This document shows, in pieces, positions 1,500-8,612 of a stretch of DNA of 8,692 nucleotides; within the stretch, counting starts at the first letter, position 1; each line of letters begins with the position of its first letter. This stretch comes from a virus (lineage: Duplodnaviria; Heunggongvirae; Uroviricota; Caudoviricetes), in IMG/VR virus record IMGVR_UViG_2778261591_000007; one strand, given 5' to 3'. The notes beneath the pieces are model-generated. The model made no database searches. It saw nothing but the letters and a program-made list of their open reading frames with translations, and was not told the DNA's origin. The position numbers and the translations under genes were made by a program.

Positions 1500-1658
1500 A
1501 TTTCTTTGCCGCATCAAGCATCACTTCTGAAAACGTGCGCTTGCCACTGAATACTCTTTCTCTTCTCAATTTTTCGTTCGTGCCAAATGATTCGCCATGA
1601 ACAAAATTTGGTCTTAAAATGGTAATCGCAATCTCTTTGACTACTGCATCCAAGCGAA

Positions 1659-1811
1659 TCACACCGTTACCCCCTCTCTCTTCAGGCTGTCTATCAGGCG
1701 CTTGATAACCTCTGAGTTAAACGACCTGCACTCTTCCTTTGCCCTGCTACCGATAGCATCCTTTAACGACTGCGGCATCCTTACCAAAATCTTACTTATT
1801 TCTTTCTCCAT
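1659..1811 (-). CDS. arc: Arc-like ribbon-helix-helix repressor
   Basis: 50-aa product MEKEISKILVRMPQSLKDAIGSRAKEECRSFNSEVIKRLIDSLKREGVTV. The core (MPQ…RSFNSEV…KREG) matches the P22 Arc RHH signature (MPQFNLRWPREVLDLVRKVAEENGRSVNSEIYQRVMESFKKEG). Start taken as ATG 1811..1809 with GGAGGG 5 nt upstream; the ORF-track start at 1847 is a TTG without an SD. Confidence 0.8.
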   Translation of the reverse strand: MEKEISKILVRMPQSLKDAIGSRAKEECRSFNSEVIKRLIDSLKREGVTV

Positions 1812-1847
1812 GTTACCCTCCACACAAACAACTCTTTTCGAATACAA

Positions 1848-1876
1848 AAGATAGCAAAGTGAGTATATCTAGTCAA
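1848..1876 (-). promoter_or_regulatory. Candidate Pant promoter with an inverted repeat in the spacer (possible Arc operator position)
   Basis: Minus strand: -35 TTGACT (plus 1871..1876), 17-bp spacer, -10 TATCTT (plus 1848..1853), about 35 nt upstream of the arc start. The spacer and hexamers carry an inverted repeat AGATA(1849..1853)-N12-TATCT(1866..1870). In P22 the Arc operator lies between -35 and -10 of Pant. Confidence 0.45.
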
Positions 1877-1893
1877 AATTTTTTTGCATACAC

Positions 1894-1905
1894 TTTGATA
1901 TCAAA
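1894..1905. promoter_or_regulatory. Perfect 12-bp palindrome TTTGATATCAAA in the mnt/arc divergent intergenic region (candidate operator)
   Basis: Read directly from the sequence; exactly self-complementary. Lies 18 bp upstream of the predicted Pant -35 and about 20 bp upstream of the mnt start (1926), where Pmnt and its operator would be expected. Confidence 0.45.
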
Positions 1906-1925
1906 TTGAATACCAAAGGTGTGAT

Positions 1926-2174
1926 ATGGCAAAGGGTGTGTCAATTTCTCCAACTACGGTAAGAATCCCTGAATCTTTACGCGAGGCTCTTTCTGTCAGA
2001 GCATCAAAAAATGGTCGCTCTGTTAACTCCGAGATCGTCATGATTTTGCAAGCCGCGATTGATGAAGATAGGTCGCCAAAGTCAGTTGAGTCATTTGCTC
2101 AGCAAGAAGCTGACAAATTCAAAGAGGCGCTGCTTGAGACGCTAAAGACCATGTATGGTAAGGATGAAAAATGA
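1926..2174 (+). CDS. mnt: Mnt-like ribbon-helix-helix repressor
   Basis: 82-aa ORF, the same size class as P22 Mnt. N-terminal RHH region (TVRIPESLREALSVRASKNGRSVNSEIVMILQAAI) parallels the P22 Mnt motif (…FRMPMEVREKLKFRAEANGRSMNSELLQIVQDAL). AAGGTG Shine-Dalgarno at 1916..1921. Divergent from arc-ant as in P22 immI. Confidence 0.8.
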   Translation: MAKGVSISPTTVRIPESLREALSVRASKNGRSVNSEIVMILQAAIDEDRSPKSVESFAQQEADKFKEALLETLKTMYGKDEK

Positions 2175-2489
2175 AACGTATAGCTATCCTATTGCTCCTG
2201 TGTCTCTCGAGCATAGCTAACGCAGAAAAAAAAATCAGACGATAGCAGTTTTGATGAAATACAAGGCCTCATGATAGCTTCTAAAATGGCTGGTATGTGT
2301 GGTGCAATCAAACAAATGGCAATATTCCAAGAATCTACAAACATGCCGGGTGGGAATGAATTCTTACAGAGATTCCTTACTACAGAGCAAGCAAGGCTTG
2401 GGATGACTCCGCAGCAATTTCTTGAAGCATGTCAGAAATCAATCTCTATTTATACCACCTATTACAATATGAGCTCTGAGGAAAAATAG
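2171..2489 (+). pseudogene. Secreted hypothetical protein gene split by an A9 homopolymer (possible frameshifted or slippage-dependent gene)
   Basis: ATG 2171 overlaps the mnt stop (ATGA) and encodes MKRIAILLLLCLSSIANA-EKKIRR-stop (2243..2245), a typical Sec signal peptide with an AXA cleavage site and almost no mature part. The +1 frame is open from 2217 through 2489 and contains the 72-aa track ORF (2271..2489). The two frames meet at the A9 tract (2226..2234). Removing one A gives a single 105-aa preprotein. Confidence 0.45.
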
Positions 2490-2498
2490 ACAAGGATT

Positions 2499-2684
2499 TC
2501 AACAGCTTCCGCGTACCTGAGTAATTCTGTCGCGGATTTGCTTCTTACGGTGATTTAAGCTGGAGAGCTTGGCTTCTGCTTCTGATATTTGCGCATCAAG
2601 ATCTTTAAGCTCAAGATCTGAAAGTCGCTGGTCAAGCAGGGTTTGATTCAACTCAATGTTGTTCAGACGTTCTTCTATGGTCAT
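2499..2684 (-). CDS. Small hypothetical coiled-coil protein (61 aa)
   Basis: ATG 2684..2682 preceded by a perfect AAGGAG at 7-nt spacing. Product is a heptad-like, charged, Leu-rich helix (…LLDQRLSDLELKDLDAQISEAEAKLSSL…). No family recognised. Expression is doubtful because a terminator hairpin lies immediately upstream. Confidence 0.3.
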   Translation of the reverse strand: MTIEERLNNIELNQTLLDQRLSDLELKDLDAQISEAEAKLSSLNHRKKQIRDRITQVRGSC

Positions 2685-2696
2685 GATTACTCCTTA

Positions 2697-2726
2697 TAAA
2701 AAACCCACCTGACGGTGGGTTTTATT
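2697..2726. terminator. Bidirectional rho-independent terminator
   Basis: Stem CCCACC (2704..2709) / GGTGGG (2714..2719) with loop TGAC, flanked by an A-run (2698..2703) and T-run (2720..2723). Reads as a terminator on both strands: it ends the minus-strand operon 2746..3592 and plus-strand transcripts coming from mnt. Confidence 0.55.
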
Positions 2727-2745
2727 AGTGCTTGTATAGGTTGAA

Positions 2746-3144
2746 CTATCTATCAAGCCATATAACAAAAAATGTCGATCCAAGACGATAACCAACCATG
2801 GCTTTCAAATCATCAAATCTAAAAGCCAAGAAATGATCTACGTCTTCCGTTATATGACTGGGGATACCTGCTTTAATTGCACCCCTTGCAATCTTCTCAA
2901 ATCCAAGCTTATGCCTACCTTGCTGCTTAATATCTGCCCATGTTAGTTGACTTAATCTGTATAATTTATCAGCTAAGCCAGCTTTCTCATCTTTTTGGCA
3001 TTTCGTTATGCAGTGAGAGCTTTGGATGTAACAGAATGAAAATTTCGGTTTCTTTTGATCTGAATTCCCCCCTGACTGCGGCCCTAACTTTAACTTACCT
3101 GTAGATTCAGCAGGGGGGATAATCCTTTTAGATTTTCTTGCCAT
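2746..3144 (-). CDS. Hypothetical basic protein (132 aa), downstream partner of the Panacea-like gene; candidate toxin/effector
   Basis: ATG 3144..3142 lies 4 nt after the upstream gene's stop (TAACGAGATG), suggesting translational coupling. Product has a Lys/Arg-rich, probably disordered N-terminus (MARKSKRIIPPAESTGKLKLGPQSGGNSDQKKPKFSF), a Cys/His cluster (CYIQSSHCITKC) and a C-terminus ending …HFLAFRFDDLKAMVGYRLGSTFFVIWLDR. No family recognised. The longer track ORF (to 3219) starts at TTG and overlaps the upstream gene by 71 nt, so the ATG start is preferred. Confidence 0.5.
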   Translation of the reverse strand: MARKSKRIIPPAESTGKLKLGPQSGGNSDQKKPKFSFCYIQSSHCITKCQKDEKAGLADKLYRLSQLTWADIKQQGRHKLGFEKIARGAIKAGIPSHITEDVDHFLAFRFDDLKAMVGYRLGSTFFVIWLDR

Positions 3145-3148
3145 CTCG

Positions 3149-3592
3149 TTAGTTAATCCGAGTTGCAAAGTACTCTGCCATCTCCTTAGAACTAATTTCA
3201 GAACCACCAACACCCTCAATATAGTTTGATCTCCATGGTGACTCTTCGTGTGTCATGTTCCTCAGTTTCCAGGCAGAAAATTGCCCAAAAACATCCCAGA
3301 CTTCTTCTAATAGCTCTAACTGTTCTTCGCTGAATTTTTCAGCATCAAAAGACTCTGGAGAAGGGATAGCACCATTACCATATTGTTTATAACGGTGATA
3401 AAGCTCAGGGACAACAGGGCCATGCATCCAAGCTTCCATCTTATTCTGAAAAAGAGGCTCGCCAAGCAACGCCAATGAAAAACCCTGAGCATAGTAAACA
3501 AGCTTTTGTAATTTTAAATTAGAGATTGCGTCACCGCTATCCTCGTCACACCGCGACAGGAAGTAGTCGGCGACATCAAAACAAGTAAGCAT
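3149..3592 (-). CDS. Panacea-domain (DUF4065, SocA/GepA-like 'phage-associated protein') antitoxin-type protein
   Basis: Start taken as ATG 3592..3590 with GGAGG 7 nt upstream (the track start is a GTG two codons earlier). The segment DVADYFL…ISNLKLQKLVYYAQGFSLALLGEPLFQNKMEAWMHGPVVPELYHRY matches the DUF4065/Panacea signature as I recall it (T/N-KLQKLLYYAQ…G.PLF…EAW.YGPV.P.VY). Confidence 0.7.
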   Translation of the reverse strand: MLTCFDVADYFLSRCDEDSGDAISNLKLQKLVYYAQGFSLALLGEPLFQNKMEAWMHGPVVPELYHRYKQYGNGAIPSPESFDAEKFSEEQLELLEEVWDVFGQFSAWKLRNMTHEESPWRSNYIEGVGGSEISSKEMAEYFATRIN

Positions 3593-3966
3593 GAACACAC
3601 CTCCATCTTGATAGCCACAGCTAAGTATCCAACTATGTCAAATGTCATTTAATACTATAACAAAGCTATCAGCAATCCTTCGGAGGCTAACTTACAACCA
3701 CTTTAGCGACATGTTTAAACCATTACGTTTCACATTTACTGCATTTTCGCCGAAGTTACCTATAAGGTAATGTCACATTTCCTGCAAGTTTCATGCAATG
3801 TTGAAAAGTGAGCTATTCACTTTTCTATGACACCAAACACCAAAAATAGCACTTTTTGCTAAATCATTCGTCCAAGTTGTGGATGGTTTGTCGTTGACAC
3901 ATTTTCACACACCGCTCCACCAATAAAGTATCATCTGGTATCCTGCTCAAAACTAAGGAGGTTAGT
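3593..3966. promoter_or_regulatory. AT-rich divergent intergenic region with repeated motifs (promoters for the Panacea operon and the secreted-protein gene)
   Basis: 374 bp with no ORF. Direct repeats TCACATTTaCTGCA (3730..3743) and TCACATTTcCTGCA (3772..3785) flank an inverted repeat TTACC-tataa-GGTAA (3756..3770). Related TGTCA/CACATTT elements at about 3635..3650 and 3894..3910. TTGACA at 3894..3899 but no clean -10 at 17-bp spacing. Confidence 0.3.
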
Positions 3967-4356
3967 GTGAAGCGATTTCTTGCTGCTATGTTCTTATTCA
4001 TATCTTTTGGGGCTACAGCAGAGTGCTGGGTCGTTGGAGATATGCGCGGAATAAGCTATTCAGAACGAAATAATTTCCATCCGGAAGAAGATGGTTTTAG
4101 TGGAACATTCATCATTAAGACAAGCGGTGAAGATGCTAGCATCACATATTCTGGGACAGATGCGGGCGGCATGGCTTACAAAGTATTGTCTAAAAACTCC
4201 ATCATAGGAATCGGCGCGAATGGCGAAACTCAACGCGTTATCGACTCATGGGTAATACATCCTACTGGAACAGTTTTAATGTCAAAAACCATTTCCGGTT
4301 ATGGAAATATGGATTCAACCAAAGCTTTTGTTGGAAAAGTAAAAAGAAAATGTTAG
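3967..4356 (+). CDS. Secreted (periplasmic) hypothetical protein, 129 aa
   Basis: GTG start with AAGGAGG 5 nt upstream. N-terminal signal peptide MKRFLAAMFLFISFGATA with AXA cleavage (ATA|E). Mature part is beta-rich and Gly/Ser/Thr-rich, with Cys at both ends (AEC… and …KRKC). Convergent with gp16. No family recognised. Confidence 0.55.
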   Translation: MKRFLAAMFLFISFGATAECWVVGDMRGISYSERNNFHPEEDGFSGTFIIKTSGEDASITYSGTDAGGMAYKVLSKNSIIGIGANGETQRVIDSWVIHPTGTVLMSKTISGYGNMDSTKAFVGKVKRKC

Positions 4357-4380
4357 CGATTGAATCCAATTTCCCATACG

Positions 4381-6291
4381 TTACTGCTGTGTTGCCTCAG
4401 TGGCAAGCAGCGGCCTGATGGCATTCGCAGCGTTATTCAGCGCTCTTTCATAGGCTGGCGTTCCAGCTTTAGTGTTTGCCAGACGTAAGAGAGCATTCCT
4501 TGCTGCTTTGGACTCATACAAGCGCATGATTGCACCGAAACCAGCCTCAAGTCCCAGTGATACACCAAGGGTTGCAGTTGCGCCAATCGTTCTAATCCTG
4601 TTAGCTTGCGATTGTCCTGTCTGTGTTACTACATTTGCGGCGTCCGACCTTGCTGTTTGCTGTAGAACTTCATGAAGAGCATCAAGCTCTTTCATGTGTC
4701 TCCCACTGAATATCGTGTTATAGATCTGACCGTCAGATTGCGACTTCAACTTATTTAACTCGGTAAGAAATTTTGTTGGCGAGTCTCCTGCTTTTTCTGC
4801 AATCTTGCTGATATAAGCAGCACGCATAGCGTTCTTTCCATCTTCACTAAGAGCTGGCCATATCCTCTTAATATCTGATGGTTTTCTGCTGAATACAACG
4901 CTGTTTATTAGCTCTGGAGTAAACTCTTTTTTAGCTTTGTTGAGATTATTCGCAATCCTTTTATTAAGAACCTTATTGAAGACGTTGGAGTAGTCAGAGT
5001 TTGCTTTGACGTATCTGGCGGCCTCTCCAGCCCCCAAATACCGCGCTGCGTTATTCCTCAAATCTGCCCCCATTGCCCTCTCCACGGCATCAGTTGCGGC
5101 TTTCGCGCTATTAGGAAAAACCATGGCATCTCCCTGAATACTTTCCCTCAAGGCTGACCGCAACTCTCTCAATAGACCAAAATCTATATCTGGTTTAGCA
5201 AGTTCTTCTCGCAAATCGGATAACCCGCGAATCAAATCCTTATTTGCCACTTTCCCAAGCCTATTAGCTCTGGTAAGTACGTTGTCGATAACCTTAATAG
5301 ATTTTGATGTGTCAACTGGTGTGTCTCCCATTTTGGCTGTAATGTCTTCAATAACGCTTCCGGCCGAATCCTTCCTTGACTTCAGAGAGCCATACAGATC
5401 GTCAACAACAACTGATGGACTATATTCACCATATTTCTCAAGCTGTTTTTTAACTAGCTGACTTCTTTTTGCATACTGCTCAGCTCGCTTTGAGCCTGTT
5501 CCCAGCAAAGCCCCCTCAGCATCCTGAGTAAGACCACGAGTGAAAGCATTTTTCGGCGGGATTACATCAGATGTCATTGGTGTCACGCCCATCGATTCTG
5601 ATGTGGCAATTTTCTTCGCCACTTCTGGTGCAATATCACCTTTAAAGGCAGTTATTCCACGCTCAAGCCCTTTTGCAACAGTATTAACAGCACCACCTGT
5701 TAGCATGCCAACACCTATATCTGTTGCCAGTTTTCCCGCATCATTTTTCTCACTGTTTGCGGCGAGCGATCCGACTGCGTTTTCTGCCAGAAGACGGGCT
5801 GCGCCTTGAGTAATTCGACCAGCAAGTGTTGGCGCCTGAGTTGAAGCGCCGCCAACGCCAACAGTAGCCAGGTAAGGCAATGCCTCCGCAAACACCCTAC
5901 CTTCTGTCGTTTGTGGAGTCAGAGCACCTTGCTGAAGTCCAAACGCCTGCTCTAATCCCTGAGTTGTTACTCGTGGCGCTGGTTGATATGTTCCATCGCC
6001 AATACCGAGTTTACCGCCAGCCCATGCCGCCGCGCTTGTTACAGCATCGGCAACTGATGCTGGTATATTTGCCACATTTACACCAGCCTGCACCAGTCCG
6101 CGACCAGTTTCTTTTACTGCTTCGCCGAGGTCAGACATAAATCCATCTTGCTGTTCTACAGGCTGCTTTTGGTTTTGAGTTGGTTGATTACTGGAGGACA
6201 GAATCTGAGCGATGCGACGTGCTCCCTCAGTATCACCAGCAGCATCAGCATTCCTTAACGCCGTCATCAATTGTTCACGACTATAGGCCAT
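4381..6291 (-). CDS. Ejection (injection) protein, P22 gp16-like
   Basis: 636-aa ORF (P22 gp16 is about 609 aa). Last gene of the ejection-protein block, directly upstream of the sieA/immI position as in P22. GGAGGG Shine-Dalgarno; its start overlaps the gp20-like stop (TAATG). Ala/Gly/Gln-rich composition typical of these proteins. Assignment rests on synteny and size, not a search. Confidence 0.7.
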   Translation of the reverse strand: MAYSREQLMTALRNADAAGDTEGARRIAQILSSSNQPTQNQKQPVEQQDGFMSDLGEAVKETGRGLVQAGVNVANIPASVADAVTSAAAWAGGKLGIGDGTYQPAPRVTTQGLEQAFGLQQGALTPQTTEGRVFAEALPYLATVGVGGASTQAPTLAGRITQGAARLLAENAVGSLAANSEKNDAGKLATDIGVGMLTGGAVNTVAKGLERGITAFKGDIAPEVAKKIATSESMGVTPMTSDVIPPKNAFTRGLTQDAEGALLGTGSKRAEQYAKRSQLVKKQLEKYGEYSPSVVVDDLYGSLKSRKDSAGSVIEDITAKMGDTPVDTSKSIKVIDNVLTRANRLGKVANKDLIRGLSDLREELAKPDIDFGLLRELRSALRESIQGDAMVFPNSAKAATDAVERAMGADLRNNAARYLGAGEAARYVKANSDYSNVFNKVLNKRIANNLNKAKKEFTPELINSVVFSRKPSDIKRIWPALSEDGKNAMRAAYISKIAEKAGDSPTKFLTELNKLKSQSDGQIYNTIFSGRHMKELDALHEVLQQTARSDAANVVTQTGQSQANRIRTIGATATLGVSLGLEAGFGAIMRLYESKAARNALLRLANTKAGTPAYERALNNAANAIRPLLATEATQQ

Positions 6292-7577
6292 TACTGCCCT
6301 CCGAGATATTTGCTAATTAATTCGTCATCGGACAATTGCTGTTGAGGTTGGCTATCGCCATAACTTGAGGAAAGAAAACGTTTTGCCGCAGAGTTCAATG
6401 ACTCACCCTTCTTAACATCCATCCCCATGATGTTTCGGTTGCGATCAGATTGTCCTGGGCTGCCATTTGCACTCATCCACTCTGACTTAAACTCGTTGAA
6501 CTTCGCGTTATTACTTTCCATTTTTGCCATACCCCTTAACCATCGAGCCATGACCATTGGATTATCCGTTTCGCTTGGAATGCCTTTCCTTGCAAACTCA
6601 ATATCCTTATCTGATGCAGGGCCGGGAGGGAGAAGTTTGGTTGCCTGCGCATTGGCTAGTTGGTTGAATCTAATCCGCATATCTCGGAGGTAGTTATTTT
6701 GCCCCGTAAGCTTAGAGAACATATTTTCAGCGTTACCGAACAAACCAGGAGTTGGCTTCTCCTTCTCCAGCGTGTCAGCGAGCGTTGTCATTGAATCGGC
6801 AGCATTACGACTAGCTGCCGCATCACCTGCTGATTTTTCTATAGCCTTTTCCATGTTCACTGATAATTTTGGCGCTGCATTAATAAGTTCCTCGGCCTTT
6901 TTTTGTGCCTGTTGTACTTCAAAACCGAATTTCTGCTTATCAAGTGCCAGTCTTTCTGCTGCAAGTCCGTGTCCGGTCATTGCTGACTGATAGGAAAGGT
7001 TTTGCCCTCTCGCCTGAAGTGCTTCTCCAGCCTGATTGCTGCGGATTTGCTCATTAAGCTGATCGCGTTTATGCTGCACATCAAACTGTTTATCCATAGG
7101 AAGAGTGGCAAGGCGGCTAGCATTTAACAGGCTATTAAACCTGCCCGGATCCTGTTGATAAAGCTGCCATGCGTCATCCTTACTCACACCAAGACTTGAT
7201 AATGCTGCGCTGTTGCTATTCAGAGCATTTGCAATTTCATTTGGATTTCCTGTAGATGCAGCAATTGATATTTTATTTAAAGCTGAATTAACAAATGCTG
7301 AATGCTCAGCACTCTGAATACCTAACTCCTGCTGTATAGCCTGAGTAAACTCAGGGAATTTTCGACGCAGAGAAGCAATTTGTTCAGGAGGCGTTTCATT
7401 AATAGCTTTATAGAATTCCTGCTGTCTGGCATCCTGCCGAATAGCCCGCTGGTTATCTATTCCCTGCGCTATACCTTGCTGTGTTGTGGCAAAGGTTTGA
7501 GCTTCTTTCAATCCTTCCAGTCTGAAGTCAGGAACTAATGACATCAGATTTAATGGGCTGCCAATACTATAAGCCAT
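6291..7577 (-). CDS. Ejection (injection) protein, P22 gp20-like
   Basis: 428-aa ORF (P22 gp20 is about 471 aa). AGGAGG Shine-Dalgarno; its start overlaps the upstream stop (TGATG). Sits between the gp7-like and gp16-like genes. Confidence 0.7.
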   Translation of the reverse strand: MAYSIGSPLNLMSLVPDFRLEGLKEAQTFATTQQGIAQGIDNQRAIRQDARQQEFYKAINETPPEQIASLRRKFPEFTQAIQQELGIQSAEHSAFVNSALNKISIAASTGNPNEIANALNSNSAALSSLGVSKDDAWQLYQQDPGRFNSLLNASRLATLPMDKQFDVQHKRDQLNEQIRSNQAGEALQARGQNLSYQSAMTGHGLAAERLALDKQKFGFEVQQAQKKAEELINAAPKLSVNMEKAIEKSAGDAAASRNAADSMTTLADTLEKEKPTPGLFGNAENMFSKLTGQNNYLRDMRIRFNQLANAQATKLLPPGPASDKDIEFARKGIPSETDNPMVMARWLRGMAKMESNNAKFNEFKSEWMSANGSPGQSDRNRNIMGMDVKKGESLNSAAKRFLSSSYGDSQPQQQLSDDELISKYLGGQ

Positions 7578-8239
7578 CAGAATAATCCTCCTAAAAATCC
7601 ACCAAACATGTTAGTGAAAGAGTTAACATCCTGAGATGCACCATTACCTAATGATGAGTTAGCACTGGCTGCCGTCTGCCATGGTAAGGCTTTTTGCGCC
7701 CCCCTGATTTGCCCTGATTCTCCTATGAGAGACGTTAAAACATTTGAGTTGTTTGCCGATGCTGCACTACCCATACCAGCAGCAGTTAACCCAACATTCG
7801 TTAACCCCATTAACTGGTTATACATATCCTGCTGCTCTGCTGTCTTCATGGAAAGATATTGCTGGCCTAATTGAGGGGCAATAGAAGCCAGCATATTTCC
7901 CGTAGCCGTTGACCCAAGCCCGCCTGTAGCTTCAGCAGATGCAAGCCCACTATAACGAGCCTGATCATTTAGGAGCTTGAATTCTTGCGAATTAAAGTAG
8001 TCGCCTAATAATTTATTTCGATCAATAGGAATGCCAGCAAGCTTTTGCAAACGAGGTAAAGCTGATTCGCCAACTTCACGATAAGGTTTTCCAAACGCTA
8101 TCTGCTGCTGATACATTTGCTCCTGAAGGTTTTGCTGCCTGTCATTAGCTTTTTTGTACTCTTTGCTTGCAGAATTAGCGCCTATTCCACCAAGTATCCC
8201 GCTAGCAGCATTTGTTACACCTTTAATTGCTCCGCCCAT
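7577..8239 (-). CDS. Ejection (injection) protein, P22 gp7-like
   Basis: Start chosen as ATG 8239..8237 with GGGGGAA upstream, giving about 220 aa (P22 gp7 is about 229 aa). The track's longer start at 8290 lacks a good SD and would overlap the upstream gene by 68 nt. Gly/Ala/Ser/Gln-rich. Confidence 0.6.
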   Translation of the reverse strand: MGGAIKGVTNAASGILGGIGANSASKEYKKANDRQQNLQEQMYQQQIAFGKPYREVGESALPRLQKLAGIPIDRNKLLGDYFNSQEFKLLNDQARYSGLASAEATGGLGSTATGNMLASIAPQLGQQYLSMKTAEQQDMYNQLMGLTNVGLTAAGMGSAASANNSNVLTSLIGESGQIRGAQKALPWQTAASANSSLGNGASQDVNSFTNMFGGFLGGLF

Positions 8240-8612
8240 GATATTCCCCCGGATCACGCCACATAATAAAAAAGGCGCTTTCGCGCCCATCTACAGTCTT
8301 TAGGGTTTGTATCGTTCGCTCGCCAAACCCCATTCTTCTGGCATAGTTGCATACTCTTGGTCTGTCGCTGATTATTACCGCCCGCAATTTATGGTGACCA
8401 AACATTTTAAGAATTGATTCACCAGCTTTTCTGCACTCACTCCATCTTCGTTTATCCATTGCAACATGGATGTCATAGAAGCCTGATTGTTTCACCATGG
8501 CAAATACGCAACACCCATCCCACAAATAATAGTTAGCCCCTGGATCAATCCACGATCTAACTCCCCACAATCTCATTAATTGTGAGCCTGTAATAGCGTC
8601 TATGTTTGTCAT
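8223..8612 (-). CDS. Hypothetical late protein at the position of P22 gene 14
   Basis: 129-aa ORF, ATG 8612..8610 overlapping the upstream gene's stop (ATGA). Sits immediately upstream of the gp7/gp20/gp16-like block. Assignment by synteny only. Confidence 0.45.
   Translation of the reverse strand: MTNIDAITGSQLMRLWGVRSWIDPGANYYLWDGCCVFAMVKQSGFYDIHVAMDKRRWSECRKAGESILKMFGHHKLRAVIISDRPRVCNYARRMGFGERTIQTLKTVDGRESAFFIMWRDPGEYHGRSN

Follow-up and report, generated by a model that had tools for sequence, protein, structure and literature searches.

The gene on the minus strand at positions 2746-3144 of the window, by which we mean the whole 8,692-nt stretch of DNA analyzed here, is best read as the PanT half of a PanA–PanT module that is carried as a moron by a P22-like prophage, that encodes a predicted RNase of the RelE/BECR fold, and that is truncated in this copy by a nonsense mutation. 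We put the probability of this overall reading at about 0.7. The evidence consists of the conserved pairing of the gene (panT) with a stand-alone Panacea gene (panA), its place in a published family, a predicted RelE-like fold, homology to the effector domain of an anti-phage system, and an amber codon where relatives encode Glu133. A publication from 2022 already covers this gene family, including its partnership with Panacea and the prediction that it is an mRNase.

Prophage setting of the locus

The 8.7-kb window comes from an E. coli prophage of the P22-like (Lederbergvirus) type, of which it represents the immunity I/ejection-protein end. It contains three large ejection-protein genes on the minus strand (7577-8290, 6291-7577, and 4381-6291), a P22-type antirepressor gene at 502-1425 (Pfam P22_AR_N, E = 1e-45; P22_AR_C, E = 6e-30), and Arc-family genes at 1659-1847 (minus strand) and 1926-2174 (plus strand). 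The panA–panT pair occupies a variable "moron" stretch, with the ejection genes on one side and the mnt/arc(/ant) immunity region on the other. Window positions 2499-4400 show 99.3% DNA identity to Salmonella phage vB_SemP_Emek, with 13 mismatches in the aligned region, only one of which (position 2748) falls within the panA–panT module. Positions 1500-3972 are ~99% identical to E. coli phage phiv205-1, and positions 1500-4400 differ by a single base from a prophage of E. coli OkiPb01711.

Several neighboring reading frames were characterized along the way. Just 3' of the panAT terminator, a 61-aa coiled-coil-like ORF (2499-2684, minus strand), which matches PHROG 7586 with an E value of 2e-43, is kept in Emek, in phiv205-1 relatives, and in E. 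coli prophages. Divergent from panA, a 129-aa ORF (3967-4356, plus strand) starts with a segment resembling a signal peptide (MKRFLAAMFLFISFGATAEC). It matches PHROG 2651, and the Emek annotation likens it to Sf6 gene 38. The flank past 3969 varies among the carriers of the TAG allele described below, and the product called there has 106 aa vs. 129 aa. On the immunity side, an ATG at 2171 (plus strand) opens a 24-codon signal-peptide ORF (MKRIAILLLLCLSSIANAEKKIRR, followed by a stop) that overlaps the stop codon of the mnt-like gene. An A9 tract is found at 2226-2234, and A8 at this site would fuse the 24-codon ORF in frame with a 72-aa ORF at 2271-2489. Over positions 1-105 of 105, the 105-aa protein reconstructed in this way matches PHROG 19844 (E = 1.8e-68), while the 72-aa piece alone scores 6.8e-48. 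E. coli OkiPb01711 has this A9 as well; the tract may represent a frameshift in a homopolymer, a site of slippage, or part of a decaying gene.

The panA–panT module

A sequence-only reading of this DNA had raised the idea that the protein is the cognate partner of the Panacea protein, and this idea held up. The upstream gene panA (3149-3592, minus strand) encodes a stand-alone Panacea/SocA-like (DUF4065) antitoxin-type protein of 147 aa, which matches Pfam PF13274 with an E value of 8.1e-25; its match to the NCBIfam SocA_antitoxin model (E = 1.5e-19) is under the curated cut-off. The panA stop codon (TAA, 3151-3149) lies 4 nt ahead of the panT ATG on the same strand, a spacing that implies translational coupling. 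As for the start of panA, ATG 3592, which has a GGAGG (3604-3600) 7 nt upstream, is more likely than GTG 3598. PGAP calls a 147-aa PanA in locus L013, and GTG 3598 is the start used in the mechanical ORF list and in the Emek annotation (149 aa).

The module ends with an intrinsic terminator (2696-2719, minus strand) composed of a 10-bp stem with a CCCACC/GGUGGG core, followed by UUUUUU. Its folding energy is -15.8 kcal/mol (z = -4.1), none of 200 shuffled sequences was equally stable, and the Emek record has a rho-independent terminator annotated at the matching position. A scan of 2400-4100 for consensus promoters and terminators did not list this element, though folding confirms it, and the same type of scan over the same interval found no minus-strand panA promoter. 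A perfect TTGACA at 3641-3636 was considered as a panA promoter and not called, since it has no acceptable -10 element.

We then looked at six distant homologues sharing 42-52% identity. In all six loci, a stand-alone Panacea gene encoding 143-146 aa is found immediately upstream on the same strand, with panA–panT gaps ranging from -8 to +35 nt. The settings of these loci are unrelated: a P2-like tail-gene cluster in Aeromonas, the vicinity of a P22-type portal gene in Solidesulfovibrio, the vicinity of hsdR in a cyanobacterium, the vicinity of an integrase gene, and two chromosomal locations, with an acidobacterium among the hosts. A Panacea pairing that is kept amid unrelated surroundings is characteristic of a mobile two-gene module, and these sequence comparisons support the view that panT and the Panacea gene are cognate partners. 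Among complete E. coli genomes, 157 of 5426 carry the module.

Disrupted alleles of both genes were also seen. In phiv205-1 (L011), a 1-nt deletion in a T5 run of panA, at the equivalent of window position 3335, leaves only a 91-aa CDS annotated at panA, with panT intact. This deletion may be a sequencing error in a homopolymer run or a natural "antitoxin-less" state, the latter fitting a nontoxic PanT. In three related E. coli genomes, a G-run of panT is one G longer, and the annotation lists no CDS there. Such homopolymer-run disruptions of panA and panT may be sequencing errors; taken together, the disrupted alleles suggest no strong requirement for either gene in the lysogen.

A large family that includes the published PanT cluster T1

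The protein had been described as an orphan, a description that does not survive database searches. A word-indexed search returned 180 homologues from Proteobacteria, Cyanobacteria, Acidobacteria, and Desulfobacterota. An exhaustive profile search returned 1578 clusters (at 50% identity) with E ≤ 1e-3 and 886 with E ≤ 1e-10, nearly all of which correspond to single-domain proteins of 132-146 aa, and PanT gives an end-to-end match to PHROG 8366 (E = 2e-61). Neither Pfam nor NCBIfam contains a model matching the window PanT or any of 92 family members, and searches of PDB sequences with the single protein or with the 92-sequence family profile found nothing.

Nor does the protein define a new toxin family, as had been proposed. 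In their PNAS survey of Panacea (DUF4065) neighborhoods, Kurata et al. (2022) delineated 88 PanT clusters (PMC8832971). Their Dataset S1 lists Emek YP_006560565.1 (PanA, without an N-terminal domain) and YP_006560566.1 as pT1/T1, in the order A|T and under "Phage," and their Table S1 gives "mRNase" as the predicted family of the Emek protein (PMC8832971). Since the window protein is that same Emek protein except for Glu133 and the tail, we are nearly certain that panT is a member of cluster T1 of the PanA–PanT modules. In the table of 1268 predicted pairs, the pT1 label appears 217 times, next to 218 for the MqsR cluster T2 (PMC8832971), which makes these two the largest of the PanT clusters.

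The designation as a toxin fared less well. Two T1 proteins, Emek YP_006560566.1 and WP_077635758.1 from E. coli MOD1 (also "mRNase"), were induced from pBAD33 in E. coli BW25113, and both were scored "not toxic," which is why neutralization by PanA was not assayed; the authors regard the nontoxicity as inconclusive (PMC8832971). T1 is therefore a predicted PanT and not a validated one. Measured against the start indicated by the homologue alignment and current PGAP calls, the annotated starts used in the two constructs reach 62 and 20 nt into panA and add 22 and 8 residues, respectively. These non-native N-terminal extensions are a caveat to the published negative result.

Predicted fold and the NsnC effector domain

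PanT is a basic protein (pI 9.8). Its N-terminal 33 residues, correctly noted before as basic, contain 6 Lys and 2 Arg (pI 10.7) and are predicted to be disordered (model pLDDT 50-63); they are followed by a predicted RelE/BECR-fold RNase domain (residues ~34-132). In an alignment of 92 homologues, the invariant or near-invariant residues are Pro33, Phe35, Lys54, Trp69, His78, Gly81, Glu83, Pro95, Ala107, Arg109, Val117, Gly118, Tyr119, Arg120, and Asp131, plus a C-terminal F-x-L-Y-x-H. Glu83, Arg109, and Asp131 are each present in 92/92 sequences, Arg120 in 90/92, and His78 in 88/92.

We modeled PanT in its restored form (P0003, 98% identical), which has both Glu133 and the tail, and supplied the alignment of 92 sequences as input. 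The model has a mean pLDDT of 86.8, with residues 40-147 mostly above 90. In window numbering, it comprises a strand (34-36), two helices (51-65 and 69-73), four strands (83-86, 104-111, 114-121, and 124-131), and the tail. The C-terminal segment GYRLGSTFFVIWLD, rightly perceived as beta-like from the sequence, spans the last two of these strands. While the sequence-only reading could not place the protein in RelE/ParE, the predicted fold is similar to that of RelE, YoeB, YafQ, and HigB, with mRNase matches ranking above ParE matches. A structural search, one of the checks that had been suggested, pointed the same way, since Foldseek put these families at the top, though with weak statistics (E of 0.1 or worse; target-normalized TM of 0.5-0.6). 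Foldseek against the BFVD viral structures returned nothing meaningful. As modeled, PanT T1 displays a RelE-type alpha/beta fold.

Sensitive profile searches, another suggested check, gave a mixed outcome. Besides the lack of Pfam, NCBIfam, and PDB matches mentioned above, which extends to the Pfam/NCBIfam models for RelE, ParE, YafQ, HigB, and YoeB with the window protein and the 92 members alike, hhalign gave no significant match when the family profile was set against YoeB and YafQ of E. coli (probability <1%; of these two sequences, that of YoeB was checked against PDB 2a6q). The sole alignment was a 7-residue "GYR" patch with YafQ. The equivalence of catalytic residues between PanT and these enzymes thus rests on analogy. 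One library, however, recognized the family at the sequence level. The window protein matches the PADLOC model PDLC03891 (NsnC) with an E value of 1.7e-5, and 91 of the 92 family members match it at E ≤ 1e-3 (best E = 1.7e-10), the alignment covering positions ~178-284 of 284, through to the C terminus of the model. In the Menshen (NsnABC) anti-phage system, NsnC serves as the effector, and its C-terminal domain, named "PB-BECR1," has been described as a BECR RNase domain that resembles YafQ and has an H-R-H triad (PMC12065111). Neither Panacea nor DUF4065 comes up in the Menshen paper (PMC12065111), and we did not find the T1–NsnC link stated either there or in Kurata et al. (PMC8832971). This sequence link ties a "toxin–antitoxin" family to a validated anti-phage system and suggests a conditional, defense-type role. 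A nuclease-type effector, as originally suggested, is the best reading.

A nonsense allele at codon 133

The sequence-only reading overlooked the fact that the window copy carries a nonsense truncation and took 132 aa to be the true length, which is an artifact of a premature stop. Codon 133 (2746-2748, minus strand) is TAG here instead of GAG (Glu133), the plus-strand base 2748 being A in the window and C in relatives, which carry 7 more residues. Full-length PanT, represented by WP_032219545.1 from E. coli OkiPb01711, is therefore 139 aa long vs. 132 aa in the window. The orphaned 3' end of the ancestral gene is still present at 2725-2745 (minus strand), where it specifies FNLYKH and the original TAA. 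The stop leaves this stretch, with its codons for Tyr137 and His139, untranslated. Reading through the window stop gives WLDR, a stop, FNLYKH, and two stops, while the closest relatives have WLDREFNLYKH. Homologues extend 7-9 residues past the end of the window protein, with a (D/E)F.LY.H tail in which Tyr and His are each found in 91/91 homologues reaching those columns.

Base 2748 is the sole difference from OkiPb01711 over 1500-4400. GAG is carried by Emek, by phiv205-1, by two complete E. coli genomes, and by 17/17 IMG/VR contigs with the same 33-nt context, and this one base is what sets the window copy apart from Emek and three other relatives. The TAG allele was found in three further assemblies (GCA_012221485.1, SRR5330936, and SRR6870476), two of which diverge from the window past 3969. 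Its presence in these assemblies rules out a sequencing error and shows that the allele is inherited. With full-length forms of PanT recorded on more than 1000 contigs, the TAG allele is rare. The protein WP_244583468.1 (P0147), encoded on a 7330-bp E. coli contig, is 134 aa long and ends in WLDREF, which represents a second, independent loss of the L-Y-x-H tail.

Since Tyr137 and His139 are removed, the window allele is most likely catalytically dead, and, judging from sequence conservation, the truncated protein is probably inactive. The tail-less natural alleles (the window copy and WP_244583468.1) are ready-made loss-of-function controls, as they lack exactly the invariant Tyr-x-His.

Alternative readings of the panT product

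The 132-codon minus-strand ORF reported previously does exist, running from ATG 3144-3142 to TAG 2748-2746, but its frame is open up to 3219, and GenBank and IMG annotations use upstream starts that give 147, 160, or 161 aa. The real product might then be a 157-aa ORF starting at TTG 3219 or at another upstream start overlapping panA. We consider this very improbable because homologues from many phyla start within a few residues of the Met at ATG 3144, the short panA–panT gaps in other taxa leave too little space for an upstream extension, and the current PGAP call is 139 aa. Upstream starts were therefore rejected on the basis of the homologue alignment and PGAP calls. Another reading is that of a metal-binding protein acting on nucleic acids or as a nuclease, with a new fold and family, on account of a C-x5-H-C-x3-C motif in a basic protein. 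The string in question, CYIQSSHCITKC, is indeed present at residues 38-49. The metal site proposed for it is not conserved in the 92 homologues, where Cys is found at position 38 in 6, His at position 44 in 13, and Cys at positions 45 and 49 in 76 and 53, respectively, with just one of the four ligand positions even mostly Cys. The substitutes are Glu/Arg for Cys38, Tyr/Phe for His44, Ser for Cys45, and Leu/Met for Cys49 (39/92), a pattern expected of ordinary surface or core positions and not of a metal site. We rejected a four-ligand, zinc-finger-like site, and in view of the RelE-like predicted fold and of a family that is already catalogued, the corresponding reading of the protein is hardly credible.

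That PanT T1 has a RelE fold and yet is not a nuclease deserves more attention. It could then serve as a non-catalytic adaptor or regulator or, like ParE, inhibit some protein target, and its partnership with PanA would have a purpose other than neutralization. We find this unlikely because the invariant polar set (His78, Glu83, Arg109, Arg120, and Tyr-x-His) is typical of BECR RNase active sites, the homology is to the NsnC effector domain, which is the sole candidate toxic domain of Menshen, and mRNase structural matches outrank ParE, while a gyrase poison of the ParE type would be toxic when overexpressed. It might also be asked whether the 132-aa allele is still functional, either because the last 7 residues are dispensable or because suppressor backgrounds allow readthrough of the amber codon. 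supE-type amber suppressors occur in E. coli, the TAG allele persists in at least four assemblies and in two flanking backgrounds, and the folded core (residues 34-131) is intact in the 132-aa form. Against this, the Tyr and His of the lost tail are invariant across phyla, the model places the tail within the domain with high confidence (pLDDT ~95), YoeB, YafQ, and HigB use C-terminal His/Tyr residues for catalysis, and the allele is rare, being absent from the 17 IMG/VR contigs. Retained function of the truncated protein is thus quite doubtful.

A proposed role for PanA–PanT

In our preferred reading, full-length PanT would act as a RelE/YafQ-type endoribonuclease, with an active site consisting of His78, Glu83, Arg109/Arg120, and the C-terminal Tyr137-x-His139. 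These roles are assigned by analogy to YoeB (Glu46, Arg65, His83, and Tyr84) and to YafQ (His/Asp/His). RNase activity of PanT seems reasonably probable. PanT would be translated by coupling to panA, and the stand-alone Panacea protein PanA would restrain it via direct binding. Ernits et al. (2023) reported that stand-alone Panacea proteins neutralize directly, in one case by contacting the unstructured N terminus of the toxin (PMC10440598). By analogy, the conserved basic disordered N terminus of PanT is a candidate handle for PanA.

Although speculative, a conditional, phage-triggered role seems more attractive than classical addiction because of the reported nontoxicity of T1 proteins, their prophage-moron locations, and the effector domain they have in common with Menshen. 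PanT would probably fire only on cue, for example upon infection by another phage, instead of being a constitutive growth poison. The more specific scenario in which T1 proteins are latent RelE/YafQ-like RNase effectors that fire when Panacea senses an incoming phage is possible, and we put it forward tentatively. If true, a widespread prophage moron would be a two-gene superinfection-defense system, which would explain why T1 was scored "not toxic," and the Glu133-to-stop change would amount to a naturally occurring knock-out that removes the tail with its catalytic Tyr-x-His.

Comparison with known systems

The closest published counterpart is T1 of Emek, with which the window module shares the same stand-alone Panacea partner, the antitoxin-first order, and the P22-like prophage locus. 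The window allele differs by the Glu133-to-stop change and the consequent lack of the last 7 residues, and the published Emek start is 22 codons further upstream.

When compared to RelE, YoeB, YafQ, and HigB, which are ribosome-dependent mRNA endonucleases, PanT T1 exhibits no detectable sequence similarity. Unlike these proteins, it has an extra N-terminal extension of ~45 residues (basic and disordered, with one short strand) and pairs with Panacea, whereas the RelE superfamily pairs with RelB/YefM/DinJ/HigA antitoxins. It also differs from RelE-superfamily toxins in being not toxic in the single published assay.

PanA carries a SocA_Panacea domain, as does SocA of SocA–SocB from Caulobacter crescentus, the founding Panacea/DUF4065 system. 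SocB blocks replication by binding the DnaN sliding clamp, and SocA is a ClpXP adaptor; nothing at the window locus points to this mechanism. SocB is unrelated to PanT T1 and belongs to cluster T10 in Kurata et al.

As for Menshen, His78, Arg109/Arg120, and His139 of PanT fit the H-R-H triad of PB-BECR1, a mapping that we infer. In contrast to NsnC, the PanT domain stands alone, without the inactive-PIN N-terminal domain, and its regulator is Panacea. Neither NsnA (ParB-DUF262) nor NsnB (ABC ATPase) is found as a neighbor in the window or in related loci. By sequence homology, PanT shares the effector domain of NsnC, but the module is not a Menshen system.
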